A DNA stretch of 64,000 bases from Arcobacteraceae bacterium (GTDB lineage: Bacteria; Campylobacterota; Campylobacteria; Campylobacterales; Arcobacteraceae), in contig OY759974.1 of the NCBI GenBank assembly GCA_963662945.1, positions 448,001 to 512,000 of the forward strand, written 5' to 3'. How positions within the stretch are numbered: position 1 is the stretch's first letter; each line of letters opens with the position of its first letter. This document shows positions 2,352 through 58,923 of this stretch, one piece after another. Both the position numbers and the translations under genes were made by a program. The notes under the pieces are model-generated. The model saw nothing but the letters and a program-made list of their open reading frames with translations, was not told where the DNA came from and did not search any database.

Positions 2352-2720
2352 CTAGATTAATCCTAGCTCTTCACTTATATCTTTTATGAGTTTACTAAAT
2401 GGCTTTTTAGATAAATCTTCATTTTCATCTATTATCATAAATCTATCAATAGTTTCTAAGGTTCCATTTTGGAACCTTAAAGATTCATCCAAACTTGAGG
2501 TTCCGAATTAGAACCTCAAGTTATCATATTCATTTTGAGTAAGTTGAAATCTAAAATTTTCAGGAAATCTTTCAGTATTTCTTTTTACTGCCTTATTTAA
2601 ATTTTTCGTTTCTACCTGATAAAGGTCTGCCAAATCTTTATCAAGCATAACTTGTAGACCTCTTATAGTATAAATCTTATTTTGAATAGTTTCTTTTGAT
2701 ATATCTGTTATTTTATCCAT
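2352..2720 (-). pseudogene. ORF6N (KilA-N-like) DNA-binding protein remnant with in-frame nonsense codon
   Basis: IYTIRGLQVMLDKDLADLYQVETKNLNKAVKRN..RFPENFRFQLT is the ORF6N motif; TAA at 2508-2510 interrupts LRF*FGTS and the frame continues to TAG at 2352. Confidence 0.75.
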
Positions 2721-5995: not shown

Positions 5996-6205
5996 TCAAT
6001 CTGCAAGTTTTTTACAAACTTCCTCTTTTGGCAAATTTTTAGGACCAGGTTGTATCCACCAAGTTTCACCATTACTTAATTCAACTTCTCCACCCCAATT
6101 ATCATCATCGCTAAACTCTATTGTTTCAATAGTTTCTTCCATATCTTTTTTAGCTATATAAAAATAAATCTCTCCATCTGCTTCTCTTAACATTACTTTT
6201 GCCAT
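5996..6205 (-). CDS. nifT: NifT/FixU protein
   Basis: MAKVMLR..YIAKKDMEE..WGGEVELSNG..LP. Confidence 0.92.
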   Translation of the reverse strand: MAKVMLREADGEIYFYIAKKDMEETIETIEFSDDDNWGGEVELSNGETWWIQPGPKNLPKEEVCKKLAD

Positions 6206-6233
6206 AAATTATCCTTTGTATTTGTAAACTATA

Positions 6234-22564: not shown

Positions 22565-23572
<1,008 letters not shown>

Positions 23573-29182: not shown

Positions 29183-30163
29183 TTAAACCGGTAAAACCCT
29201 AATATTTTCATCCACTTTTTGTTTCAATGTAGACTCAATAGCATACAATGTTCCTGTACTTCCTGTTGAACAAGATGAACATGCTCCTAGATATCTTATA
29301 TAGATATCATAGTATGGTGTATTTTCTTTAATATCAATAATTTCCATATCTCCACCATCCATTACTAACATTGGTCTAATATATTCTTCTATAATTGCAT
29401 CTACTGCTTTGATTCTTTGAACTATTGTCATTTTATCAAATGAGTTTTCACCACTTTGTGTTGTATCTGCTGCTGCACTTAATTTCTCTTGTTCCATTGA
29501 TGCTTTTACTTCTGCTAAGATATCTACTAGATATACATCTTTTGCTTCATGTCCACCTGGGCGGATACATGATTTACAGTAACTTCCTGCTGTTGTTTTC
29601 TCAATAATCTCTTCTACTGTTTGAAGGTTATTTTCTCTTATTGCATCTACGATATCTTTTCTTGTTTTTCTTGCACATTCACAAACGATATCTTGGTTTT
29701 CTATTTCACTTCGCTCAACTCCTTTGTATTGTGCTGCTGCTTCAAGGATTACATCGTATGCCATTACTGAACAATGCATCTTTTGAGGTGGAACTGCTGG
29801 AGTATTTGGTTCATCTCTTAAAAATGCTTCCACTTCTGTATTTGTAATATGGATTGCATCATCTACTTTTCTACCGATACATAGTTCTGCCATAGCATCA
29901 CTTGAAGCAATAGCTGTACCACAACCGAAGCTTCTAAATTTTGAATCAAGGATTGTATCTGTTTTTTCATCTACCAACCAGTAAAGTCTTACTGCATCAC
30001 CACAAGACTCTGCACCAAAGTCTGCAACAATTAATCTTGCACCTACTTTATCTGCATCTTCTTGAGTAAATTCACCAAGTGCTCTTGGGTTATTCATTCT
30101 ATCTTGTACTTTTCTACTATATTGTTCCCAAACGTTTCCTGTAACTAATTCATCTCTTGCCAT
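29183..30163 (-). CDS. nifU: Three-domain Fe-S scaffold NifU
   Basis: SCGDAV, FGCGTAIA, KMHCS, VCEC..YCKSC, GACSSC. Confidence 0.93.
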   Translation of the reverse strand: MARDELVTGNVWEQYSRKVQDRMNNPRALGEFTQEDADKVGARLIVADFGAESCGDAVRLYWLVDEKTDTILDSKFRSFGCGTAIASSDAMAELCIGRKVDDAIHITNTEVEAFLRDEPNTPAVPPQKMHCSVMAYDVILEAAAQYKGVERSEIENQDIVCECARKTRKDIVDAIRENNLQTVEEIIEKTTAGSYCKSCIRPGGHEAKDVYLVDILAEVKASMEQEKLSAAADTTQSGENSFDKMTIVQRIKAVDAIIEEYIRPMLVMDGGDMEIIDIKENTPYYDIYIRYLGACSSCSTGSTGTLYAIESTLKQKVDENIRVLPV

Positions 30164-30197
30164 AATATTTTTCCTTTATAATTTATTCTCTATTGTA

Positions 30198-31391
30198 TTA
30201 ATCGTGTAAGTGTACACTAAAAGCTTGTTGTTTTGCATACGTCATAGATATATTTCTAAGACGAACTACAGTTGACTTCACTTTCTCAATAACATAATCT
30301 ATCTCTTCTTCTGTTGTAAATTTACTCAATGCAAACATTACTGTTGCATTTGCTATCTCTGTTTTTTCACCTAATGCTTCAACTACTGCACTTGATTCTA
30401 AATCTTCACTTGAACAGCTTGAACCTGTTGAGATATAGATACCATGTTGATTCATATCCCAAAGCATCGCTTCCCCTTCAACACCTCTAAAAGAGATTGC
30501 TACAAGGTTTTTGAGTCTTTTTACTCTTGGTACATAAGATTTTGTATCTGGTATTTTTAGAAGTTCATCTTCTAGTTTATTTCTCAATTTTTGTGTTGTA
30601 TGATCCATAAAAGAGAGGTTTATATTTGCTAGTTCTACAGCTTTTGCCATTGCTGCAACACCGTTATTATAAAGAGACCCACCTCTTTTTCCACCCATTA
30701 CATTTTTTGCACCATGGATAAGTGTTGTATATGGCGCTCCTGCTTTTATATACATTAAACCTACACCTTTTGGTCCATGGAATTTATGTGCTGAACAGGT
30801 AAAGTAATCTACACCTAAGTCTCTTACATCTACTTTCATTTTCCCCATTGCTTGGGCACCATCACTATGGAAGTATACGTTATGTTTTTTTGCAATTTCA
30901 CTTATTTTTTTAATATCTTGCACTGCACCTGTTTCATTTGAAGCCATAAGAACAGAGATTAAACATGTTTGAGGAGTAATTGCTTTTTCTAGTTCATCTA
31001 ATTTAACAAGACCATTTACATCTGTTCCTACGTAAGTAACTGCCATACCCATATCTTTACAGAATTTCAGTGGAGATTTTATACTTGAGTGTTCTGCCAC
31101 TGTTGAAATGATATGATTTCTACTATCACCTTTTAGGAAGTTATGCAAAAATGTTTTTATTACTGCGTTATTCCCTTCTGTTGTTGAAGAGGTGATGATA
31201 ATATCATCTGCATCATCTGCACCTATTCCTTCATACAATGTATCATAGGCATCATTTAACAATTTTCTTGCTTCTATACCTTTATTATAGATTACATTTA
31301 TATTTCCGAACTTCTCTATACTCTCACAGTAAACCTTCTGTACTTTTGGGTCTATTGGGGTTGTTGAGTTATTATCTAAGTATACTTCCAT
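30198..31391 (-). CDS. nifS: Cysteine desulfurase NifS
   Basis: YLDNNSTT, SAHKFHGPKG, STGSSCSS. Confidence 0.92.
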   Translation of the reverse strand: MEVYLDNNSTTPIDPKVQKVYCESIEKFGNINVIYNKGIEARKLLNDAYDTLYEGIGADDADDIIITSSTTEGNNAVIKTFLHNFLKGDSRNHIISTVAEHSSIKSPLKFCKDMGMAVTYVGTDVNGLVKLDELEKAITPQTCLISVLMASNETGAVQDIKKISEIAKKHNVYFHSDGAQAMGKMKVDVRDLGVDYFTCSAHKFHGPKGVGLMYIKAGAPYTTLIHGAKNVMGGKRGGSLYNNGVAAMAKAVELANINLSFMDHTTQKLRNKLEDELLKIPDTKSYVPRVKRLKNLVAISFRGVEGEAMLWDMNQHGIYISTGSSCSSEDLESSAVVEALGEKTEIANATVMFALSKFTTEEEIDYVIEKVKSTVVRLRNISMTYAKQQAFSVHLHD

Positions 31392-31416: not shown

Positions 31417-31758
31417 TTAATTTTGTTCTGAAACTTTACACGTGAAACAATTTATCTGATCTTTACAATCCTCACACGCAGGAGCAATTTCACCAATACT
31501 ATCGTATATAAATTTTTTCCATAATTTGTCTTGTGGTTTCAAATCAAACAAAACTGGAAAATGTTCTTTCATAAATTTACCCATCTCTAGCCTGCTTTTA
31601 AAACCCAAATCTTGATAAAGATGATTTTCCATTAATGAAGTTTTCGCAACATGTACTGAGATAATATCTCTTGCTCTATCATTTTTTGCATATTCTTGTA
31701 AAAAGGATATCACCTTTTGTTCTAATATTTTTAACGGCGTTTCACTTTTTATACTCAT
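31417..31758 (-). CDS. nifQ: Short NifQ protein
   Basis: NHLYQDLG..SR.EM..FM..HFP.L..K.WKKF.Y..APACEDC. Confidence 0.85.
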   Translation of the reverse strand: MSIKSETPLKILEQKVISFLQEYAKNDRARDIISVHVAKTSLMENHLYQDLGFKSRLEMGKFMKEHFPVLFDLKPQDKLWKKFIYDSIGEIAPACEDCKDQINCFTCKVSEQN

Positions 31759-38251: not shown

Positions 38252-38626
38252 TTATTGATTTTGATTTTTTAAAAGTATTCTTTTGAGCCAAAGTGGTGCA
38301 TTTCCTTGCATCATTTTTTGTAATGATTGTATCACATCTTCTATTCTTTCAGCTTCATGAGATGACTTCATTGGATAGATACCACACTTTTGTACCATAT
38401 TGGCAGCTTTTGGTCCTATTTGAGATACATAAACGATGTCGCTATCTTCTAAACAATTGATTTTATATTCTAATTTATCCACCTCATCATCAAACTTTAG
38501 TGAAGAATCAACTTCATTAATAAGTTCATAATCATCTTCAGAAACTTCATAAATATAAAACATCTCACACCAACCAAAATGTTGGTTTACATGAACATTA
38601 TCTTTTGATGCAAATGCTATTTTCAT
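38252..38626 (-). CDS. nifX: NifX FeMo-co carrier
   Basis: MKIAFAS.D..HVNQHFG, IGPKAA, APLWLKR. Confidence 0.9.
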   Translation of the reverse strand: MKIAFASKDNVHVNQHFGWCEMFYIYEVSEDDYELINEVDSSLKFDDEVDKLEYKINCLEDSDIVYVSQIGPKAANMVQKCGIYPMKSSHEAERIEDVIQSLQKMMQGNAPLWLKRILLKNQNQ

Positions 38627-38641
38627 AAATTTGTCCTAGTG

Positions 38642-39613
38642 TTAGATAATATATATCTGTATATTCTCATCAATGATTTGAGAAAGTGTATTTTTAATCA
38701 TATCATAAGTACTTGTAGCACCCAAGCTACACCCAGCACAGGCACCTTGATATGCAAGTCTTATTTGAATCTCTGGTTCATTAATATAATCTAAAATCAT
38801 CATATCTCCACCATCTTTTACTAAAATTGGTCGAATATAACGGTCAAGTGCATCTGCTATAAGTTCATATTGCTCTTCATATGATTTTGCTCTAAATACT
38901 TGATTAAGTTCACATGTTTTATTTGGTAATTTATCAACACCACCCATTTGAGCTACTGCCATTGGATGACCAGATAGTGCTGCATTTAACATGGCATTAA
39001 AACCTTCTCTTACTCTATCTTCATTTGTTCTATCTTTTAAAAGAAGAAGCCCTAATCTAAAATTTGCACCTTGATGATTTTTTTTCACTGCAATTCTAAA
39101 ATAATCTATTGCTTTTTCTTCATCCTCTTCTACACCAATTTTTGATTGATACATAAGTGCCAAATTATATGTTGCAGAGTCATTTTCATAAACTGCACCT
39201 TTTTCAAACCACTCTCGAGCTTTGTCAAAGTCTTTTTCTACACCCTCACCTTTTAAGTACATCAAACCAATATTTGCCATTGCTTGGTCATTTTTGAGTT
39301 CTGCTTCTTTTTCCCAAATACTTAATGCTGTTGCAAAATCTTTTGCTCTATATGCTTTTAATGCTTCTCTATGTTCCATAAATCTAATTCCTTCTTTTGG
39401 ATTTGGGATCTCTTTCCCTAACTCTAATTGTTTTTTTATATGCTTTTCTAAATACTCAGTAGCTATCTCTATCGCTTCGTAATAATCTTCACTAGAACCT
39501 TTTATATCAAAGTCAGTATAAACTGCCAAATAAGCATCACCAACCTCATGTTCCCCTGGATAAACTTCAACTGGATAATCCAAACTCATATAGTATTCTA
39601 AATTTTTTTCCAT
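38642..39613 (-). CDS. HicB-like / Sel1-repeat / NifU-C (Nfu) fusion protein
   Basis: YYMSLDYPV..GKEIPNP; Sel1 repeats MYLKGEGVEKD, MYQSKIGVEED; IRPILVKDGGD..YQGACAGC. Confidence 0.8.
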   Translation of the reverse strand: MEKNLEYYMSLDYPVEVYPGEHEVGDAYLAVYTDFDIKGSSEDYYEAIEIATEYLEKHIKKQLELGKEIPNPKEGIRFMEHREALKAYRAKDFATALSIWEKEAELKNDQAMANIGLMYLKGEGVEKDFDKAREWFEKGAVYENDSATYNLALMYQSKIGVEEDEEKAIDYFRIAVKKNHQGANFRLGLLLLKDRTNEDRVREGFNAMLNAALSGHPMAVAQMGGVDKLPNKTCELNQVFRAKSYEEQYELIADALDRYIRPILVKDGGDMMILDYINEPEIQIRLAYQGACAGCSLGATSTYDMIKNTLSQIIDENIQIYII

Positions 39614-39913
39614 CTAGCAACACTCCAACTCAACTTGATCTAGAACTTCTGTACCTTTTTGGAAATCAAACTCTTCAAATAAATCATGGATATAAAACAC
39701 ATTTGCACATACTAAATACAAAGTATCTTTTTCTTCCCCTTTACTCCAAACTTCTCGATAATTTTCTGGTATTTTATCCATAAAATTAACCCATAAACCA
39801 TTTTTCGATTCTGGTTTTGATTCAAAAAGTTCATTCATAGCATCAAGAACCAATGCAGCATTTTCATAACAATCTATATTGTTAAATGTAACATATCTAT
39901 CTTTTACTTCCAT
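39614..39913 (-). CDS. cowN: Nitrogenase CO-protection protein CowN
   Basis: DRYVTF.NIDC, LYLVCANV.YI.DLFE, terminal ELECC. Confidence 0.88.
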   Translation of the reverse strand: MEVKDRYVTFNNIDCYENAALVLDAMNELFESKPESKNGLWVNFMDKIPENYREVWSKGEEKDTLYLVCANVFYIHDLFEEFDFQKGTEVLDQVELECC

Positions 39914-39916
39914 AAT

Positions 39917-40309
39917 TTACTTATTATCCTCACAACCACAACTACAAGTTTCACCCTCACCAGGATTGAGTAGGTTTTTATAATTGTCATTTGTAAGTTT
40001 TACTAGTTTGTTATTATTAAAATTATTACATATATCTTCTATTGAATAAGTATTATAATCAGCAGTGTAAACATCCATACCATTTTTATCAAATGATTTA
40101 TAAACACCTTCACCCATATAATAAAATATAGTAGAATCTACACCTTTTGTTTTTAAGAAATCACCACTTTTAGGTCCTTCCCCTTGAACATCATTTGTTA
40201 TGATTTCATACTTACCTGTATGGGTATCTAGTAGTGCAAAATATGGAACTCTTCCATAAAGTTTTGAAATAGTTGTTGATTCTTTTGTATCGATTGGAAT
40301 TGCTAACAT
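39917..40309 (-). CDS. NifB/NifX-family protein
   Basis: LAIPID..ISKLYGRVPYFAL, MGEGVY..F...G..VY. Confidence 0.8.
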   Translation of the reverse strand: MLAIPIDTKESTTISKLYGRVPYFALLDTHTGKYEIITNDVQGEGPKSGDFLKTKGVDSTIFYYMGEGVYKSFDKNGMDVYTADYNTYSIEDICNNFNNNKLVKLTNDNYKNLLNPGEGETCSCGCEDNK

Positions 40310-40345: not shown

Positions 40346-40361
40346 TGCATAATCTATTCCC
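40346..40361 (-). promoter_or_regulatory. sigma54 promoter for the cowN/nifX operon, overlapping the upstream gene's 3' end
   Basis: GGGAATAGATTATGCA (GG-N10-GC). Confidence 0.75.
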
Positions 40362-41226
40362 TAAATATTGTTTTATCTCGTCCTGTCAATTTTGCTTTGT
40401 ATAATAACTTATCTGCCTCTTTTAATAAATCATCAATTGTTAGAAAAGTATCATTGTATTGTGCAATTCCACTACTAATAGTAAAATTTACTTTTTTTGA
40501 TTCTACATCTAAAGTATCTGCTTTTATATTATTTCTTATAACTTCAAGAAGTTCAAAAAGTATTGCTTTACTTTCAAAATTACAAACAATTGCAAACTCT
40601 TCACCACCAAGTCGTCCAAATATACTCTGTGATGGAAGCATACTTTGAATCATCTTAGCTATTCTTTTTATCACAATATCCCCAATATGATGTCCATAAG
40701 TATCATTAATACTTTTAAAATTATCAATATCAATCATCACAGCAAATAGATCTTTTTGTTGAAATTCAAATCTTTCTTGTGCTAATTCAAAAAACTTTCT
40801 ACGATTTAAAATACCTGTCATAGTATCATGAGAAGATATATATTCAAGATTTTTTATCATACTTTGTAACTCTAATTGAGTTTTTACTCTAGCCATTAAT
40901 TCTTTAGGTTTAAATGGTTTAGAAACATAATCACTCCCACCAACTTCATAAGCTTTTTCAATACTATCTTCATCTGTTTTTGCAGTAATAAATATTATAG
41001 GAATTGCTTGAGTTTGAGGATTTTGTTTTAATTGTCTACACACTTCATATCCATCTATATTGGGCATCATAATATCAAGAAGTATTAGATTTGGTACCTC
41101 TTCATTTGCTATTTCTATAGCATTTTTTCCATCTAAAGCAACTATAACATCATACTTGTCCCCAAGTAATTCTACTAATATTTTTATATTTATTTTTGTA
41201 TCATCAATAACCAATATGGTTTCCAC
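40354..41226 (-). CDS. REC-GGDEF response regulator diguanylate cyclase
   Basis: ILVIDD, LLDIMMP, KPF; DIDNFK, RLGGEEF; no RxxD I-site. Confidence 0.92.
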   Translation of the reverse strand: METILVIDDTKINIKILVELLGDKYDVIVALDGKNAIEIANEEVPNLILLDIMMPNIDGYEVCRQLKQNPQTQAIPIIFITAKTDEDSIEKAYEVGGSDYVSKPFKPKELMARVKTQLELQSMIKNLEYISSHDTMTGILNRRKFFELAQERFEFQQKDLFAVMIDIDNFKSINDTYGHHIGDIVIKRIAKMIQSMLPSQSIFGRLGGEEFAIVCNFESKAILFELLEVIRNNIKADTLDVESKKVNFTISSGIAQYNDTFLTIDDLLKEADKLLYKAKLTGRDKTIFRE

Positions 41227-41235
41227 AATTTTCCT

Positions 41236-44151
41236 TTATATGAGTGCAAGAAGTTCTAAAGCCTTTTGAAAATCAAATTTTTCTGTACATTGCTTTATGT
41301 GATTAAAATTTATTTGTTCCTTTTTTGAAAGCTTATATTGATTTAGTTCCTCTAGTACCTTTTCAATATTTTTAGGTCTTTTAGAATGTAAAGTCTCTTC
41401 AAGTTTTTTACACAACTCTTTTTTCTTTTCACTTGTTAAGATCTCTTTTGGGTTCATAGATGACTCGTTTTGAAAACTCAACTGTTCTAATTCCTCAATT
41501 ACTTTATTCGTTTCTTTATAAAGTTTATCAATTAAACTTGAATCATTTTTATTTTCAACTTCTTGTATAATTTTATTAAGATTAATAGCCCCTATATTAG
41601 CGCTTAATCCCTTCATAGTATGTAAAACTCTTTTTTTCTCTTCATCTTCTAAATTATCTATAGTAAAACTTTTATAATCTTGATAAAAAGTATTTAATAC
41701 TTTCAGATATAACTCTTTATTATTGGCTAAATGTTTTAATCCATTTATTGTATCTATATATTTAAAATTCGGTAATTTTATTAGCTCTTGATTTTCTACA
41801 ATTTTATCTAGAGAAAGATATTTTCTTAATGTTGTATATAGTTTTTTTACTTCAATTGGTTTATTTAAGTGTTCTTGCATCCCTGCAGCTTTTGTTGCTT
41901 CGATATCCTCTTTCATCGCATTAGCAGTTAATGCAATAATAGGTATATTTTTATTAATCTTTTTTATATGTTTAGTTGCTTCATATCCATCCATTATTGG
42001 CATCTGAATATCCATAAGGATCAATTGATATTTATTTTTATTTTTTTGAAATATCTCTAAAGCTTCTTTCCCATTTGATGCTATATCTATTGTTATTTCG
42101 CTTTGCTCTAACAGCCCTACAACTATCTCTTGATTCATTTTATTATCTTCAACTAATAATATATGCTTTCCACTAAAAGGAATAGTTTGCACTTCTCTTT
42201 TTATAACTGTTTTATTTAAATCTTCAATATTAAAATCTTTAATAAATATATCACTTAAAATATCATTTAATAAAGAGGGATTCACAGGCTTTTGCAAAAA
42301 TAATTTTATACCAACTTCTCTTGCTAATTGGACTATTGATTCTTGTCTAAAGCTACTAACCATTATTACAGTTGGAGGCTTTTTGCCCTTATACTGTTCA
42401 TTGATAATTCTTGTTGTTTCTATACCATCAAGTTCAGGCATATTCCAATCCATAAGTATAAGATCATAATCGATATTACCTTTTTTCAGATGTTCTATCG
42501 CTTCATTTCCACTTTTTACACCATATACTTTGATATTAAACATACCCAAAATATTTTCAAGAACTTCATGCCAAGTTTCATTGTCATCTACAACTAATAC
42601 TTTTTTATCAGGAAAAATATTATATTTTTTTGTTTCATTTTTTTCTTCTAATTCAATTTCAAATATGAAAGAACTTCCAACTCCATATTCACTCTCAATC
42701 CATATTTTACCATTCATCAACTCTACAAGCTGTTTTGATATGGTTAGACCTAAACCCGTACCTCCATATTTTCTTGTAGTACTTCCATCTGCTTGTGAAA
42801 AAGACTCAAATAGTTTTGATTGTTGCTCTTGGGTTAAACCAATTCCTGTATCTTTTACCTCAAATTTATATCTGTTTCGAGATGCTTTTGAAATATATAA
42901 ACCAACTTCACCCTCTTGTGTAAATTTTACTGCATTAGCTAAAAGATTTGTAAGAATTTGTGAAAGTCGTAAATTGTCCCCATAAAACTTTTTACCTATA
43001 CTTGTATCATAACTCACAATAAGTTCAAGATTTTTTTCGTGAAGTTTAAACTCTATGATATTAACTACATTTTCTATAGTTTTAAAAAGATCAAAATCAA
43101 CCTTATCAATAGAGAGTTTTCCAGCCTCAATTTTAGAAAAATCTAATATATCATTAATAATAGAGAGAAGTGTTTTTGCACTATGATCTATCTTTTGTAT
43201 ATAATTTTTTTGTCTCTCATTAAGGTCTGTTTGCAGTGCCAGATGAGACATACCAATAATACCATTCATAGGTGTTCGTATCTCATGAGACATATTTGCT
43301 AAAAATTCTGATTTTGATTTTGTAGACTCTTCTGCTTTAACTTTAGCGATTTCAAGCTCTTTGGTTCTATTTTCAACCTTCTTTTCTAAACTTTCATTAA
43401 GATCTTTTAATTGAGAATATGAATGATTGAGTTTTTTAGTCATATTTGAAAATGTTTTTGCTAAAATTCCAACTTCACCTTTTGTAGTTATATTATCCAA
43501 TTCCTCTTTAATATTATTTTTTCCCTCTGAGACCCTTTGTGCAATATCTGTTAAAAGTATAATTGGTCGAATAAGTCTTTGAGCAAATATATAACCTAAA
43601 AATGAGAAAAATAAAGCTATAGAAAGTGCTGTAATAAGTGATGTTTTAATATTAGTGTATATTTTCTTTTCAATATCTTGCTGCGCTTTATCTACTTCAA
43701 TATTCAATTTTGTTAAAGGATAAACAATACTCAATGTACCCCATTTTTGAAATAATTGAATAGGTGTAGAGATAACAATATCGTTATTCAGCTCTTTAAT
43801 AGTAACTTTATCGACGGACATTTTGTAAATACGCCCTTCAAATATTTGAACTGTATTATCAACATTATTTAACACTATACCATCTATCTCATCTCTACTT
43901 ATTAAGTTTTTAAATATTGTGTTTATATGAGATAAATTTAATGAAGCAATATCATTTTCAATCTCTTTTTTATAATACTCTATTGTCTGATTTGCATTAA
44001 ATTTTAAATTTGATTTCATTAAAGAGATTCTTTTATCAAGTTCATTATTCATTATCTCAATTTGCTCATTAATATTTTTAACAGTAAATATTACTGTGAT
44101 TGAAATTACTATTATTAATATATTTGAAATTAATTTACTCTTTAAACTCAC
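41236..44151 (-). CDS. Hybrid histidine kinase (2 TM, HAMP, HisKA, HATPase, 2 REC, Hpt)
   Basis: [51 protein letters not shown]. Confidence 0.93.
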
Positions 44152-45020
44152 TCTAATACCTTATTAACAAGAGATAATCCATTTTTATTATACTTTAAAT
44201 TTAACTTGTCTGCTATTTTCTTATTAAAAATCACATTTGTACCCATTGGCATTTGAATAGGTGTAAATTCTTTCTTTTGCTCATATTGATTTATCATTGA
44301 AGCTATTTGTCGACCTATTGTAGGATTATCTGCTGATATTATTAATGTTGCATCATATTTTAAAAATAATTCATGATATGCAAAGAGAGGCTTTTTTGCC
44401 ATTGTAACTTTTTCAAAAAGTGATAAAACTTTTTTTTCATCTTTTAATAATAATGGATCAGCAATTAAAATTAAACCATCACTCTCTTGAATTTTATCAA
44501 TATCTATCTCATTATCTTCAGTCATCTCTTCACCTATTATTTTTATACCTATTAATAAGGCATTTTGTTTGAAGTTTTCATAGAGTTCTTTTGTATAAGA
44601 GCTATAAACAATAGTTAACTTTTTAGTATCTGGAAAAAGTGATTTAATAATAGTTAAATTCATACCCGCATGAAGTTCATTGGAAACACCAAATCTATTT
44701 TTTATCAAATCTAATCTTTTATAGTTTACAATCGAACTAAAAAATAATGTTTTTTCAGGGATATACATATCTACATATTTGTATGCTTTTGTTCCTATTG
44801 CATAAACAATATCAGGATACTCATCATATAAATACTCTTTAATTTGTTTATTTGTCATTTTAGAAATATCCAAAGATTTATAATCACCTATAAAATTTTC
44901 TTTAAATGATCTCTCTACACTTGAATATTTTTCGATATTATTATTTGAGTTCAATACTAAAATCTTCTCAGCAAATAAAAAGGAGATGGTAAAAAGGGAT
45001 ATTGTAATTAAAAACTTCAT
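44148..45020 (-). CDS. Periplasmic ABC-substrate-binding-like protein
   Basis: Signal peptide; [34 protein letters not shown] resemble the ABC_sub_bind family. Confidence 0.7.
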
Positions 45021-49199: not shown

Positions 49200-50552
49200 A
49201 TGATGGTAAACAAAAAACAAATCAGAGAACTTCTGAACGAATCAGCCTGTTCCCACAATGAGAAAAAAAAATCAAGCTGTGACAAACCAAAGCCAGGTGC
49301 TACAAGTGGTGGTTGTGCTTTTGAAGGTGCACAAATAGCCCTATTTCCTTATGCGGATGCAGCTCATTTAGTACATGCCCCAGCAACCTGTCAAGGAGCA
49401 AGTTGGGAAACAAGAGCCACGCCAACTAGTTGGGAAGGTGAAAATAATACTCCACTTGGATACTGTACCGATGTAACAACAAATGATGTTATCTTTGGTG
49501 GAGATCAAAAACTTGAAGATAGTATCAGTTATATTTGTGAAGTAAAAAAACCAAAAGCAGTATTTGTCTATGAAACTTGTGTAACAGCTATGATTGGCGA
49601 TGATATGGATAATGTTGCCAAAAGAATGGAAGAGAAATATAATATTCCAATTGTAGTAGTTCATGCACCAGGATTTGTAGGGAGTAAAAACTTAGGAAGC
49701 CGTTTAGGTGGAGAAGCTGTTTTACATCAACTAATAGGAACAAGAGAGCCAGAAGAGATACATCCATTTGGAATTAACTTAATCGGTGAATACAATGTAA
49801 CAGGCGATATGTGGCAATACACCCCTATCTTAGAAAAAATAGGGATAAAAGTTGTTTCAACTCTAGCTGGTGATGGAAGAATTGAAAATATCCAAATGGC
49901 ACATAGAGCAAAACTTAATGTAATCGTATGTGCAAAATCACTTGTAACATTAGTACGAAAAATGGAAGAGAAATACGGTATTCCACATATCTCTGTTTCT
50001 TTTTATGGTAAACGTGATACTACAAATGCCATCATGTCTATAGTCAATGCTTTTGGAGATGAAACATTGACAAAAAAAGCACTTGAAATTATAAAAGAGG
50101 AAGAGGAAGCTTTAGAACAAAGACTTCTTCCTTATAGAAAAATATTAGCTGGAAAAAAAGCTATTCTTAATACTGGTGGAAATAAATCTTGGTCAATAGC
50201 ATCAGCACTACAAGATATAGGAATCGAAGTGGTTGCTACAAGTATTAGAAAATCGACTTTAGAAGATATAGAGATTGCAAAAAAATATGTTCCAATCTTA
50301 ATGAAAGTTCCAGCAAATGAACAAGCTGCACTTATAGATGAACACAAAGTTGATATACTTCTAGCAGGTGGAAGAAGTTTATATACAGCTATCAAGAAAA
50401 AAGTGGCTTTCGTGGATGTAAATCAAGAGAAAAAAGTAAGCTATGGTGCGTATGGTGGCCTAGAAAACTTAGCTATAGATGTGTGTGCTGCCGTATTAAA
50501 TCCAGTATTTAAAACAGTAGGAGAACCAGCTCCATGGGATGAGAGCTGTTAA
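49200..50552 (+). CDS. nifE: FeMo-co scaffold subunit NifE
   Basis: PGATSGGCAFEGAQ, YETCVTAMIGDD, GSKNLGSR, TGGNKSWS, PAPW. Confidence 0.95.
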   Translation: MMVNKKQIRELLNESACSHNEKKKSSCDKPKPGATSGGCAFEGAQIALFPYADAAHLVHAPATCQGASWETRATPTSWEGENNTPLGYCTDVTTNDVIFGGDQKLEDSISYICEVKKPKAVFVYETCVTAMIGDDMDNVAKRMEEKYNIPIVVVHAPGFVGSKNLGSRLGGEAVLHQLIGTREPEEIHPFGINLIGEYNVTGDMWQYTPILEKIGIKVVSTLAGDGRIENIQMAHRAKLNVIVCAKSLVTLVRKMEEKYGIPHISVSFYGKRDTTNAIMSIVNAFGDETLTKKALEIIKEEEEALEQRLLPYRKILAGKKAILNTGGNKSWSIASALQDIGIEVVATSIRKSTLEDIEIAKKYVPILMKVPANEQAALIDEHKVDILLAGGRSLYTAIKKKVAFVDVNQEKKVSYGAYGGLENLAIDVCAAVLNPVFKTVGEPAPWDESC

Positions 50553-50553
50553 G

Positions 50554-50580
50554 AAAAAGACAATAGTTTGTCTTTTTTCT
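50554..50580 (+). terminator. Hairpin/terminator right after nifE
   Basis: AAAAAGACAA-TAGT-TTGTCTTTTT. Confidence 0.6.
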
Positions 50581-50684
50581 CAAAGAGAGTGCAAGCACAA
50601 GAAGCTCGGAACTGGAACGGTCATAACGAAGTGAAGCCGTGGAAGATAGCGAATAATTTATTCTTCCTATGATATACTCATTGC

Positions 50685-52100
50685 ATGAAAATATTATTAA
50701 CAGGTGCAAACGGATATATTGGAAGAAGAGTTAAAAATATACTCAAAACCAATCCAAATATCAAACTAAAACTTTTTGTTAGAAATAAACAATCACTATC
50801 GCAAGAGATACTACAAACTTGTGAAGTAATAGAGGGTGATACCTTTAATCTTGATGCTTTAAAAGAAGCACTTAAAGATGTAGATGTAGCATACTATTTC
50901 ATACATTCATTAAATAATGAAAACTATAAAGAACTAGATAAAATATCCGCACAAAACTTTATCCAAACAGCAGAACAATGTGGTGTAAAAAGAGTTATTT
51001 ATCTAGGTGGGCTTGGTGTAAAAGATGAAAATACAAGTGAACATCTTTTAAGTAGACTTGAAACTGGAGAGGTTTTAAGTTCCTCATCAAAAGTGCAAAC
51101 TATTTGGATAAGAGCTGGAGTGATTATAGGTTCTGGAAGTGCTAGTTTTGAGATTATTAGAAATTTAGTTGAGAAACTTCCTGTGATGATAACCCCAAAA
51201 TGGGTAGATACTTATGCACAGCCAATAGCTGTAGATGATGTTATAAACTATCTCATCGCAGCTATAACACTTGAATATGACAAAAATGTAATAGTAGATA
51301 TAGGTACTACAAAAATGAAATACAAAGACCTTATGCTACAAACAGCGGTTGCCTTAGGTTTAAAGAGGTATTTGATTCCTGTCCCTTTTATGAGTATCAA
51401 TATCTCTTCTTATTGGTTAAATCTTTTCACACCTGTCCCATTTACTGTTGCTAAAGCATTAATTGAGGGATTGAAATCAGAAGTTACAATGCAAAATGAC
51501 AATGCAAAAAAATACTTTCCACAAATAACACCTCTTAATTATATTCAAGCTGTTAAAAAAGCTGTTGCAGAGATAGAACAAAATCAAGTGGTAAGTAGAT
51601 GGAGTGATGCCGATGGAAGTAGTTGGGATAAGACACATAGAAAACAGATACATGATGCTATTTTTGTAGATAGAGTTGAGGCTGATATTAGTTCTTATGA
51701 TAAAGCAAAAGTATTTCATGCTGTTAAATCAATAGGTGGAAAAAATGGCTGGTTTGATTATAGCTATTTATGGAGAATACGGGGTTTTATTGATAAACTT
51801 ATTGGTGGAGTTGGATTGAGTCGTGGACGAAGAGATACTTGCGATATCAGACTTGGTGAATGTTTAGATTTTTGGAGAGTAGAAGATATAAAAGAGAATG
51901 AAAGGCTCCTACTCTTTGCACAGATGAAACTACCAGGGGAAGCGTGGCTTGAATTTAAAATTCAAGATAATAAACTTATCCAATCTGCATACTTCTATCC
52001 TCGAGGTATTTGGGGAAGAGTATATTGGTATAGTATGATTCCTATGCACTATTTTATTTTTAAAAATATGATAAAAGGTATTTTAAAAAATAGTGAATAA
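50685..52100 (+). CDS. SDR/NAD(P)-binding epimerase family with C-terminal DUF2867 (YbjT-like)
   Basis: TGANGYIG, GSGSASFE, IGGKNGW, LDFWRVE, AQMKLPGEAWLEF. Confidence 0.88.
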   Translation: MKILLTGANGYIGRRVKNILKTNPNIKLKLFVRNKQSLSQEILQTCEVIEGDTFNLDALKEALKDVDVAYYFIHSLNNENYKELDKISAQNFIQTAEQCGVKRVIYLGGLGVKDENTSEHLLSRLETGEVLSSSSKVQTIWIRAGVIIGSGSASFEIIRNLVEKLPVMITPKWVDTYAQPIAVDDVINYLIAAITLEYDKNVIVDIGTTKMKYKDLMLQTAVALGLKRYLIPVPFMSINISSYWLNLFTPVPFTVAKALIEGLKSEVTMQNDNAKKYFPQITPLNYIQAVKKAVAEIEQNQVVSRWSDADGSSWDKTHRKQIHDAIFVDRVEADISSYDKAKVFHAVKSIGGKNGWFDYSYLWRIRGFIDKLIGGVGLSRGRRDTCDIRLGECLDFWRVEDIKENERLLLFAQMKLPGEAWLEFKIQDNKLIQSAYFYPRGIWGRVYWYSMIPMHYFIFKNMIKGILKNSE

Positions 52101-56170: not shown

Positions 56171-57391
56171 CTAAATCCCTATAGGCTCATTTGCTTCCAT
56201 TTTACATTCATTGTTTTTATTACATTCAATATTTGCATCTAGATAAAAAACTCTATCTGTATCTACTTTTAATTGCTCAAAGTAACCTCTTCCTTCAATA
56301 GCTCTAGTTCCTGTTCCACAAAACAATATCACTTCACCCTCTTTTGGGATAGCTTCTACAAATTGTGGTGCTTTTTTATCTCCAACATAAATATTGATTG
56401 CACCTGGTATTGTACCTGATTTAAAATCTGCACTTGAACGAACATCTACAAGAGTAACTGATTTTGGAAGTTGTTTATAATTTTTTATAAACCATTCACC
56501 GTCAACTGTACCTGTATCACTCCCAAGCATTAGGTTACCACTTTTGCTCATTTTAGGTTTTTTATCTACTTTTTTTGTTTGAGAAGTTTTAGAAGAACTT
56601 CCAGTAACTGGATTGCCAACATCTTTCCATTCAGGAAAACCAGCTGCATAAACTTTCACTTTTGTATACCCAAGTGCCACAAGTTTTTTTGCTACATTGT
56701 GTGATTTGTTACAAGCATAACCACCACAATATGTTACGATTGTTGCATGTTTATCAACAGGCATAAGATGTGCATATTTTTCAAATTGTGTATCTGGTAC
56801 ATTAATACTTCCAATAATAGTACTACCAAAAAATTTAGGCCAAGGTCTTGCATCTATAAATAACGCATCTTTCTTTTCAAATATTGCTTTGGCTACATTG
56901 GTATCTACTTCAACATAATTTTTTGCATTCCATTGTGGCATACCTGCAATATAAACTTTTACATTTTTGTGACCTTTTTTCAAAAGTTCAACAGCAACTA
57001 TTGGAGATTTTACACATTTATATCCACCACAATAAACTATTATCTCTTTTGATTTGTCAACTTTTCCCAATACACCCTCATACATTTTATCAAAACTTGT
57101 ATCGGGTAACGCAAGTGCACTTGGAATATGTGATGCTTGATATTTTTTCAATGGTCTTGAATCAATTATTATTGCTTTAGCACCATTTCGTGTACCTTCC
57201 CCAACTGCATTTAAAACATAATTATAATCTACAATTTCTAGCTTATTATCTTGTATTATCTTTTTAACAGAAACTGCTGCTTGTATATCAAATCGCTTTT
57301 GCTCAACACTTGATAAAGCAAATCCATTAGAACTTAATCCTAAAAACACAAATATAACTAGTGAGACTAATTTATTATTTATTTTTTTCAT
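56171..57391 (-). CDS. Exported triple-rhodanese-domain protein
   Basis: Signal peptide; three domains with YCGGYKC, YCGGYAC, FCGTGTR. Confidence 0.88.
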   Translation of the reverse strand: MKKINNKLVSLVIFVFLGLSSNGFALSSVEQKRFDIQAAVSVKKIIQDNKLEIVDYNYVLNAVGEGTRNGAKAIIIDSRPLKKYQASHIPSALALPDTSFDKMYEGVLGKVDKSKEIIVYCGGYKCVKSPIVAVELLKKGHKNVKVYIAGMPQWNAKNYVEVDTNVAKAIFEKKDALFIDARPWPKFFGSTIIGSINVPDTQFEKYAHLMPVDKHATIVTYCGGYACNKSHNVAKKLVALGYTKVKVYAAGFPEWKDVGNPVTGSSSKTSQTKKVDKKPKMSKSGNLMLGSDTGTVDGEWFIKNYKQLPKSVTLVDVRSSADFKSGTIPGAINIYVGDKKAPQFVEAIPKEGEVILFCGTGTRAIEGRGYFEQLKVDTDRVFYLDANIECNKNNECKMEANEPIGI

Positions 57392-57522
57392 GACTTCTCC
57401 TTAAAATAAAATTATCACTAAAAAAAGTAACCTATAAGTTACAACCATTTTATCTTCCTCTTATATGAATTGTATCATACTTTTATTAAAGATGAATTAT
57501 CATTCATAACAAAGGAGAAAAA

Positions 57523-58923
57523 ATGGAACAGTTAGTCAAAGAACAAATACAACAGCTACAAAGTTTGAATCGTAGAGATGCCTTGAAACAATTAAGTGTT
57601 TTAGGAGTAACTCCTTATTTGCTTTCTCAAGAAGTACAAGCTTCTGATACTCCACAAAAAACAAATGCTAGAATTGTAATAGTTGGTGGTGGAGCTGCCG
57701 GTATTACTGTTGCAGCAAGATTAACTCGTGCCTTAGATAATCCTAAAATAACTATTATTGAACCAAGTTCTAGACATGTATACCAAGCAGGTCATACTTT
57801 AGTAGGTGGTGGAATTATCAATGCTTCTAAAATCACAAGAACAACAGCAGAGTTTATTCCTGATGGGGTCAAATGGATTCAAGCAAAAGCTACAAATATA
57901 GACCCCGAATCCAATAAAGTTGAAGTTGAAAATGGGCAAGTGTTAGAATATGACTATCTTGTTGTATGTCCAGGTTTACAATATGATTGGAGTAGAATAG
58001 AAGGTTTAAACCCAGAACAAATAGGTGAAAATGGTATCAATACAATCTATACTCTTGAAGGTGCAGAAAAAACATGGAAAAACCTTCAATCATTTGCAAA
58101 AAATGGTGGAGAAGCAATCTTCACACATCCTGATACCCCTATAAAATGTGGTGGTGCTCCTAAAAAGATTTTATATCTTATGGATGACTATATGAGAAAA
58201 GAAGGGACAAGGAAAAAAGCAAAACTAACATACAATTCAAATAGTGGGAAACTTTTTACTATTCCTATTTTTGCAGATGCAATTAAAAAACATTGGGAAG
58301 AAAGAGATATTCATTATAATCTTAAACATAATCTAGTCAAAGTTGATATGGATAAAAAAATTGCCACTTTTAAAACTCAAGTGAAAACAAAAGGAGCTTG
58401 GGATCCTGATCTTGAAGAATTTGGAGAAATTATTGAAGATAAATATACTACAAGAGAGTATGATTTTTTACATGTTCCACCTCCAATGAGTGCTCCTGAT
58501 TTTATAAAAAGCACCCCTCTTCCTTGGGACAAAGGAGACGCAGGAAAACTAGGATTAATCAATGTTGATAAGTATACATTACAACACGTAAAATATAAAA
58601 ATGTATTCTCTTTAGGAGATGTTATAGGTACTCCTTATGGAAGAACTGGTGGAACTGTTAGAAAACAAGCGCCTGTTGTAGTAAAAAATATGTTAGATGT
58701 TATGGCTGGACGTGAGCCAAGTGCAAAATTCAGTGGATACACTGTTTGTCCTATTGTAACCAGATATGGAAAAGTTATGTTAGCTGAATTTGACTATACA
58801 GGAAATCCAGCACCAACTATTCCAGGAATTGATGTAGCAGAAGAACGATGGATGTGGTGGATTATGAAAGTTTACATCCTCGAGCCTATGTATTTTTATG
58901 GAATGCTAAGAGGAAGAGCATAA
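57523..58923 (+). CDS. sqr: Sulfide:quinone oxidoreductase-like flavoprotein with Tat-like leader
   Basis: NRRDALK, GGGAAG, KCGGAPKK, GYTVCP, LAEFDY. Confidence 0.8.
   Translation: MEQLVKEQIQQLQSLNRRDALKQLSVLGVTPYLLSQEVQASDTPQKTNARIVIVGGGAAGITVAARLTRALDNPKITIIEPSSRHVYQAGHTLVGGGIINASKITRTTAEFIPDGVKWIQAKATNIDPESNKVEVENGQVLEYDYLVVCPGLQYDWSRIEGLNPEQIGENGINTIYTLEGAEKTWKNLQSFAKNGGEAIFTHPDTPIKCGGAPKKILYLMDDYMRKEGTRKKAKLTYNSNSGKLFTIPIFADAIKKHWEERDIHYNLKHNLVKVDMDKKIATFKTQVKTKGAWDPDLEEFGEIIEDKYTTREYDFLHVPPPMSAPDFIKSTPLPWDKGDAGKLGLINVDKYTLQHVKYKNVFSLGDVIGTPYGRTGGTVRKQAPVVVKNMLDVMAGREPSAKFSGYTVCPIVTRYGKVMLAEFDYTGNPAPTIPGIDVAEERWMWWIMKVYILEPMYFYGMLRGRA

Follow-up and report, generated by a model that had tools for sequence, protein, structure and literature searches.

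A HicB-like domain, Sel1 repeats and an Nfu domain in one protein encoded in the nif operon of Arcobacteraceae

Why should a gene among the nitrogen fixation genes of an Arcobacteraceae bacterium join what looks like part of an antitoxin to an iron-sulfur (Fe-S) carrier domain? The gene lies at positions 38642..39613 (minus strand) of the 64,000-nucleotide stretch of contig OY759974.1 that we analysed (the window), a nif region with a G+C content of 29.6%. The open reading frame (ORF) list shows it as a single uninterrupted ORF that starts with ATG, encodes 323 residues and ends with a stop codon at 38642-38644; full-length relatives and 38 loci support these limits. The initial annotation, made from the sequence alone, had placed the gene at exactly these positions and had read its product as a HicB-like N-terminus followed by about three Sel1 repeats and an Nfu domain with a CxxC motif, a layout that Pfam, profile and structure searches bear out. 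We consider it probable that the protein is a nif-dedicated Nfu-type [4Fe-4S] carrier of Campylobacterota, equipped with a HicB-derived and Sel1 module for partner recognition.

Relation of the N-terminal domain to HicB

Residues 1-74 (39392..39613, minus strand) form a domain of one short helix, three strands and one long helix. We regard its homology to the HicA-binding N-terminal domain of HicB, which has a partial RNase H-like fold, as established, but not that the protein is itself a member of the HicB antitoxin family. When a profile built from 30 N-termini of the family was run against 1.84 billion representative proteins, it returned 23 matches at E<=0.001. Nine of these are members of the family or fragments, including two distant full-length members (P0128 and P0131), and five are standalone proteins of 78-159 residues (E 1.4e-5 to 5.6e-4), three of which reach a Pfam HicB cut-off, with one below threshold and one without a match. 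The clusters of three of the standalone proteins carry the source name HicB, WP_013275266.1 of Thermosediminibacter oceani among them. A genome scan added eight loci outside the family, in Cohnella, Paenibacillus, a Peptococcaceae metagenome-assembled genome (MAG) and Anaerolineae MAGs, whose HicB proteins (115-146 residues) match residues 1-72/74 at 33-41% identity. The four of these proteins that were scanned all pass the PF05534 as well as the PF15919 cut-off, and directly upstream of hicB there is an intact hicA at six of the eight loci, a disrupted-looking one at another and none at the last. BLASTP of the N-terminal domain against the genome HicB proteins gives 37% identity over 75 residues (E 8e-12 and 1e-9), and hhalign pairs the family profile with a 14-sequence canonical HicB alignment over 73 columns at a probability of 99.0%. 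That canonical alignment itself leads to the solved HicB structures 6u0i and 6hpb (E 1.6e-7) and 6g1n (7.8e-7). At the level of residues, the target and HicB have in common the start M-E/K-K-N/D-L-E-Y-Y and an I-P-x-P segment after the long helix.

The predicted structure points the same way. An AlphaFold2 model of residues 1-80, made from a family-only alignment, has a predicted local distance difference test (pLDDT) value of 88.6 and consists of the short helix, the three strands and the long helix. Its top Foldseek match is 6g1c, the HicB N-terminal domain of B. pseudomallei (E 0.048, probability 1.00, TM-score 0.59), followed by TTHA0281 (2dsy; E 0.062, TM-score 0.62), with 6g1n and 6g26 also among the top matches; the first 14 rows comprise eight HicB chains, three of TTHA0281, one antitoxin (3k6q), one of 2yzt and one of RF2. 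In sequence and predicted fold, residues 1-74 are therefore like the HicA-binding domain of HicB in type II HicAB systems (PDB 6g1c/6g26, 5yrz, 6hpb and 4p78), but the protein differs from HicB in having neither a ribbon-helix-helix (RHH) or helix-turn-helix (HTH) domain nor an adjacent hicA, in its conserved chromosomal nif context and in scoring below the PF15919 cut-off. Stand-alone HicB-like/UPF0150 proteins such as TTHA0281 share the HicB N-terminal fold without the DNA-binding domain; they are single-domain proteins whose role is unknown, whereas in the target it heads a protein of three domains.

Several results count against the HicB reading and have to be set beside these. In Pfam, HicB_lk_antitox (PF15919) matches residues 1-80 at E 0.11 and 13.1 bits, below its cut-off of 27, and none of the 30 family N-termini reaches that cut-off (22 match at E<=1, the best at 0.036). 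Nine of the 23 library matches are long repeat proteins (547-1570 residues) with four to eight matched stretches each, confined to the helix region, which makes part of the N-domain profile compositionally promiscuous; the one that we inspected, P0130, is a tetratricopeptide repeat (TPR) protein, and we treat all nine as repeat-driven noise. Because an exact match to the first eight residues served as the seed of the genome scan, the BLASTP and hhalign E-values are inflated by selection. When the family profile is compared with PDB sequences, the HicB structure 5yrz comes first but at E 0.068, and the model of residues 1-80 has no PDB match at E<=0.001 in Foldseek, the best being the 0.048 given above. 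Pfam also yields no match of the target to PF05534 (HicB), and the other sub-threshold matches of residues 1-80, Ribosomal_S30AE (0.029) and Phos_pyr_kin (0.25), decide nothing by themselves. The HicB-like fold seen in the initial annotation thus fails to score in Pfam and holds up in the library profile matches, in hhalign and in the top Foldseek ranks, so that an N-terminus unrelated to HicB is not what we find.

Does the protein still belong to a toxin-antitoxin pair? Such pairs are normally adjacent, and we see no sign of one in the sequence. As the initial annotation had noted, the window holds no recognisable hicA: none of its 41 small ORFs outside the large genes matches HicA_toxin at E<=0.1 (another four small ORFs were known to be PII, nifX, cowN and a NifX-like gene). 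A local HicA hidden Markov model (HMM), built from six of the hicA genes of the HicB loci and for that reason of limited sensitivity, found nothing in the window, nor up to about 8 kb from the target gene at the 38 loci that carry it (L001-L038); in a set of 5,993 ORFs from the window and all 47 loci it matched only the seven known hicA loci. Past residue 74, Pfam and the full-length model show no RHH or HTH DNA-binding domain; Sel1 repeats and the Nfu domain stand there instead. In HicB, according to excerpts of one study (PMC6159526), it is the C-terminal domain that binds DNA, and the N-domain region blocks the HicA active site.

The homology to precisely this blocking region, the strong purifying selection on the domain and the fact that its closest standalone relatives are true hicAB pairs could all be taken to mean that the N-terminal domain still binds a HicA-type RNase, or another protein of double-stranded-RNA-binding fold, encoded elsewhere, and so ties toxin activity to Fe-S or nitrogenase status. 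However, the searches for hicA were negative, the autoregulatory DNA-binding domain has been lost and the gene sits in nif synteny at every locus. We regard such binding as highly improbable, and the same low likelihood attaches to the capture by the HicB-derived head of a HicA-type RNase or of any other protein or RNA with that fold. The link between nitrogenase maturation and a HicA-type RNase that the initial annotation had offered as one option accordingly finds no support, either in the window or at the 38 loci up to 8 kb from the gene.

The Sel1 solenoid, the Nfu domain and the proposed carrier

The full-length AlphaFold2 model (52 sequences; pLDDT 88.6, predicted TM-score 0.73) has three parts: an alpha/beta domain (residues 1-64), a run of helix pairs (about 75-222) and the alpha/beta Nfu domain. 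The middle part (residues 75-222; 38948..39391, minus strand) comprises about four helix pairs, two to three of which score as Sel1. In Pfam, Sel1 (PF08238) reaches E 9.2e-17 and 61.3 bits against a cut-off of 30.7, with two stretches passing, and this score together with the helix pairs of the model makes 'about three Sel1 repeats' a fair description. Foldseek finds 41 PDB matches of the full-length model at E<=0.001; the best ones are Sel1-repeat proteins, headed by 6ur7_A (E 3.4e-8, some 144 columns aligned). Solenoids of Sel1 repeats bind proteins, and many Sel1-like repeat proteins are secreted and Cys-rich. The middle region is like such proteins (HcpC, LpnE and the Oxalobacter SLR proteins) in sequence and predicted structure; unlike them, it is fused to an Fe-S carrier domain and preceded by a folded HicB-like domain.

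The Nfu (NifU C-terminal) domain covers residues 243-323 (38645..38887, minus strand) and is recognised by Pfam NifU and by part of TIGR02000. NifU (PF01106) matches residues 252-319 at E 2.2e-13 and 50.6 bits, against a cut-off of 27. Its CxxC motif, C292-A-G-C295, whose codons we read at 38729..38740 (minus strand), supplies the predicted cluster ligands; both cysteines are kept in 52 of 52 aligned family members and again in ten of ten sequences that include distant members. The loop that carries them (residues 292-299) is the sole weak stretch of the full-length model, and low confidence would be understandable if the predicted cluster is bound there. The models of the complete proteins match just the last 70-80 residues and lie far below their cut-offs: TIGR02000 (full NifU) scores 31.1 bits against 273.3, with residues 243-320 aligned to model positions 215-287 of 290, and the NCBIfam NfuA models TIGR03341 and NF008392 score 21.8 and 14.9 bits against 269.35 and 268, over residues 250-316 only. 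The protein is therefore neither NifU nor NfuA. With NifU it shares the Nfu domain family PF01106 and the nif context, but not the IscU-like N-terminal domain or the central [2Fe-2S] domain.

This architecture is no peculiarity of one genome. A word-indexed protein search with the target returned 378 proteins at E<=0.001, and the 120 of them listed all carry NifU and Sel1, at 62-95% identity and nearly all with 322-323 residues. The genome scan places the fusion in 38 Arcobacteraceae/Campylobacterales loci, with the cultivable diazotroph Arcobacter iocasae KX21116 (L019) and the complete genomes NZ_CP090177.1, NZ_CP182357.1, CP182352.1 and NZ_CP182343.1 among the carriers; the ten locus ORFs that were read through are all intact (321-323 codons), and the first 80 residues align without a gap in 30 of 30 family sequences. 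Purifying selection acts on all three domains. By the Nei-Gojobori method, the ratio of non-synonymous to synonymous substitution rates (dN/dS) is 0.00-0.26 for the HicB-like part (12 close pairs), 0.02-0.14 for the Sel1 part (11 of the 12 pairs, dS being saturated in one) and 0.00-0.23 for the Nfu part (12 close pairs). We rejected an artefactual origin, in which two or three genes are read through in a single genome, on these grounds: the full-length matches, the intact and gap-free reading frames, the low dN/dS in each domain and the retention of the fusion in 38 loci leave such an artefact a vanishingly small chance.

More distant relatives keep the core of the arrangement. A search with the distant member P0131 gave 83 proteins at E<=1e-20, including a Sulfurimonas/Thiomicrolovo subfamily of about 298-300 residues that is 38-44% identical to P0131 and 30-34% identical to the window protein. 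In the alignment this subfamily keeps the three strands and the helix of the N-terminal domain, but has neither the first helix nor the stretch that follows the long one. In Pfam, sub-threshold HicB_lk_antitox matches occur in six of eight distant members. Public names of the family are mostly 'NifU family protein' or 'TPR repeat protein', even 'beta-lactamase', and some sources use 'Fe-S cluster biogenesis protein NfuA'. One member, P0217, bears the JGI name 'Fe-S cluster biogenesis protein NfuA/predicted RNase H-like HicB family nuclease', the only one to mention HicB among the matches listed, so automatic annotation has caught the combination of HicB and NfuA at least once. Searched as a whole protein in the ESM Atlas, the target matches only the family's own Campylobacterota clusters, annotated as Sel1 plus NifU. 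The precomputed Pfam lists of about 25 members also carry the label PF15970.12, which we did not use; it is absent from our own Pfam scans of P0086, P0096 and P0098 (E<=1), P0131 (E<=0.01), and P0161 and P0164 (E<=0.5).

What would such a protein do? We suggest that the Nfu domain, through its invariant CxxC, holds a [4Fe-4S] (or [2Fe-2S]) cluster that bridges two subunits, and that it would hand this cluster to apo-proteins, much as the NifU C-terminal domain, NfuA and stand-alone Nfu proteins do. The N-terminal two thirds would not act as an antitoxin. The head would descend from the toxin-binding alpha/beta domain of an ancestral HicB that lost its DNA-binding domain and became joined to the Sel1 solenoid, and head and solenoid most likely recognise partners or clients together, in parallel with the degenerate A-type domain of NfuA. 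The likely clients are FeMo-cofactor assembly proteins or electron donors (NifB, NifEN, ferredoxin), or the flanking NifX-type carriers. The available part of PMC8593673 describes an Nfu domain that binds and transfers a [4Fe-4S] cluster, and an A-type domain of NfuA that binds no cluster and targets the carrier to apo-proteins. By analogy with that account, the protein would resemble NfuA of E. coli and A. vinelandii in pairing a C-terminal Nfu CxxC carrier with a non-cluster-binding, client-directing N-terminal part; it differs in having the HicB-derived and Sel1 front in place of the A-type domain, and its gene belongs to a nif operon, not to the housekeeping genes. The initial annotation had proposed an antitoxin fold reused as a docking module on an Fe-S carrier. 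The reuse fits the loss of the DNA-binding domain, the lack of a hicA neighbour, the nif synteny and the purifying selection, whereas the docking role is something that we infer.

An alternative division of labour is that the HicB-derived domain mainly associates with itself, as a dimer or tetramer, so that two Nfu domains can share the bridging cluster, and that partner recognition is left to the Sel1 repeats. The PDB sequence that the family profile matches best, 5yrz, is a HicB, and the close structural match TTHA0281 (2dsy) was deposited with four chains, both of which would suit self-association. In the S. pneumoniae HicB, however, where two chains also dimerise through their N-terminal domains, beta4 is part of the named interface in the excerpts of PMC6159526, and our model of residues 1-80 has no fourth strand after the long helix. 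The absence of the first helix and of the segment after the long helix from the Sulfurimonas-type subfamily also speaks against it, as does the statement, in the available part of PMC8593673, that stand-alone Nfu proteins dimerise without an extra module. Co-folding of two copies of residues 1-80 gave a score of 0.00 against a mark of 0.42; controls were not folded, and the result argues neither for nor against self-association. On balance we give this alternative a minor share of the likelihood and prefer a HicB-derived head that works with the Sel1 solenoid in recognising clients.

The nif operon and its surroundings

The initial annotation had put the gene in a nif cluster, and its neighbours agree. 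The window contains nifHDK, nifS, nifU, nifQ, nifT, nifA and nifE, along with mod genes, glnA, amt and PII. Directly upstream of the target is cowN (39614..39913, minus strand; Pfam CowN E 2.7e-26, NCBIfam N2Fix_CO_CowN E 2.4e-20), whose TAG stop abuts the target ATG; a GGAG stands 9 nt before that ATG. The first gene of the conserved block (39917..40309, minus strand) encodes a NifX-like protein of 130 residues (Nitro_FeMo-Co PF02579, E 3.6e-10), with a Cys-rich C-terminal tail (…GETCSCGCEDNK) past the Nitro_FeMo-Co domain. Downstream, after a gap of 15 nt, follows nifX (38252..38626, minus strand; TIGR02663 E 5e-31, 107.6 bits, just under the cut-off of 112).

The conserved order of the operon is NifX-like gene, cowN or ferredoxin, target gene, nifX, and at each of the 38 loci the target has nif genes as its immediate neighbours. 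Of these loci, 36 have the NifX-like gene upstream (one lacks it and one has no upstream sequence); nifX follows directly in 30, after an insertion in four, and the contig ends first in another four. The insertions span 1.6-6.5 kb (L003 8973-13959; L006, L007 and L008) and carry unrelated ORFs of up to 1283 residues. In 22 loci the target stop overlaps the nifX start as ATGA. Seven of the 38 loci have cowN between the NifX-like gene and the target; in nine (L011, L012, L014, L023, L026 and L028-L031) the same slot holds a gene for about 128 residues, some 400 bp upstream of the target, with two CxxCxxCxxxCP-type motifs, which from its translation only we read as a putative 2x[4Fe-4S] ferredoxin. 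A divergent nifE lies just upstream of the operon in most loci, and in 22 of the 38 (L011-L020, L022-L032, L036 and L037) a flavodiiron-like gene comes after nifX, with nifQ further on. The operon thus contains two NifX-family cofactor carriers and lies near nifE, nifQ and often a ferredoxin, and clients in FeMo-cofactor assembly are therefore likely.

The same neighbours could be read in another way, with the protein serving above all as a scaffold or chaperone of the Sel1 type, either for nitrogenase itself or for intermediates of its assembly (NifX-family carriers, NifEN or CowN-assisted MoFe protection), and the Nfu domain as a redox or cluster sensor and not as a donor. Such a scaffold would be in keeping with the translational coupling to nifX, with the NifX-like gene upstream at nearly every locus, with a cowN that runs right up to the start codon in the window and at seven loci, and with Sel1 repeats as protein binders whose structures the model matches. 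Yet cowN occupies its slot at so few loci, with the ferredoxin-like gene, named from its Cys motifs, there instead in nine, and neither the Nfu CxxC nor the motif around it varies, which is what a working carrier would be expected to show; to our knowledge, no sensing role has been described for Nfu domains. We judge a scaffold that does not donate a cluster to be distinctly unlikely and retain the carrier as our preferred reading.

Some points weigh against the carrier as well. Its function is read from domains and neighbours only, and it is from these that we infer that the protein binds a cluster, acts as a carrier with an adaptor and serves the clients named above. Neither nifB nor nifN was seen in the window, which leaves the closeness of the gene to its proposed clients partial. 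A full NifU and NifS are already encoded in the window (nifU-nifS pair at 29183-31391; true nifU at 29183-30163), so a second Nfu carrier could be redundant.

Other features of the region were noted in passing. Between nifE and the NifX-like operon (40354-45020, minus strand) lie genes for a hybrid histidine kinase (971 residues), a response-regulator diguanylate cyclase and a binding protein. In the stretch 49200-52100 (plus strand), nifE is not succeeded by nifN; the next ORF (50685-52100, 471 residues) has a weak N-terminal epimerase-type match only, and the NifN-like ORF of L011, compared with the window, matches nifK (27%) and nifE only. In L028 (8969-8989), nifX has TAA at codon 7, a serine codon in L027, which would make it a pseudogene or a MAG assembly error. 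The nifH ORF (22565-23539, minus strand) begins with GTG, and 24 residues precede the start of the TIGR01287 model, so that its true start is probably further downstream. Elsewhere in the window there are a NifT/FixU gene (5999-6208, minus strand; E 6e-17), a short NifQ-like gene (31417-31758, minus strand) that covers profile positions 54-158 of 159 only, an ORF6N-domain fragment (2511-2720, minus strand; E 7.8e-24) and, at 56171-58923, rhodanese-repeat and sulfide:quinone reductase-like proteins that match NCBIfam selenoprotein-subtype models well below cut-off. A scan with the sigma-54 pattern TGGCAC-N5-TTGCW (consensus, up to two mismatches) gave 29 matches in the window, where 21.2 are expected by chance, none of them just upstream of the operon; one match with two mismatches (39147-39162) lies inside the target gene.

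A possible second route to client specificity

NfuA is the textbook case of an Nfu carrier that gained client specificity through an extra domain. Nfu carriers with an accessory targeting domain are thus already known; what is new is a HicB and Sel1 module fixed in a nif operon. A literature search, judged mostly at the level of titles and abstracts, found no publication on the architecture HicB plus Sel1 plus NifU, and in the available part of a preprint on HicA contexts the words 'Sel1' and 'NifU' each have 0 occurrences. The domain exaptation is neat and testable, and no unusual mechanism is demonstrated.

Were the head to keep an antitoxin-like binding, cofactor assembly and Fe-S supply in Campylobacterota would be coupled directly to RNA cleavage or translation control, with part of a toxin-antitoxin system wired into a core metabolic maturation pathway. 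On the carrier reading that we prefer, the family would represent another route to Nfu client specificity, in which the toxin-binding fold of an antitoxin and a Sel1 solenoid have become fixed in the nitrogenase cofactor-assembly operon of one lineage. If this is true, it would be a clear exaptation of a toxin-antitoxin domain for housekeeping metallocluster traffic. The protein would then be a candidate nitrogen-fixation accessory factor in Arcobacter-type diazotrophs, whose nif accessory set has been little studied, and would open a way to study how [4Fe-4S] units reach NifB, NifEN or ferredoxins.

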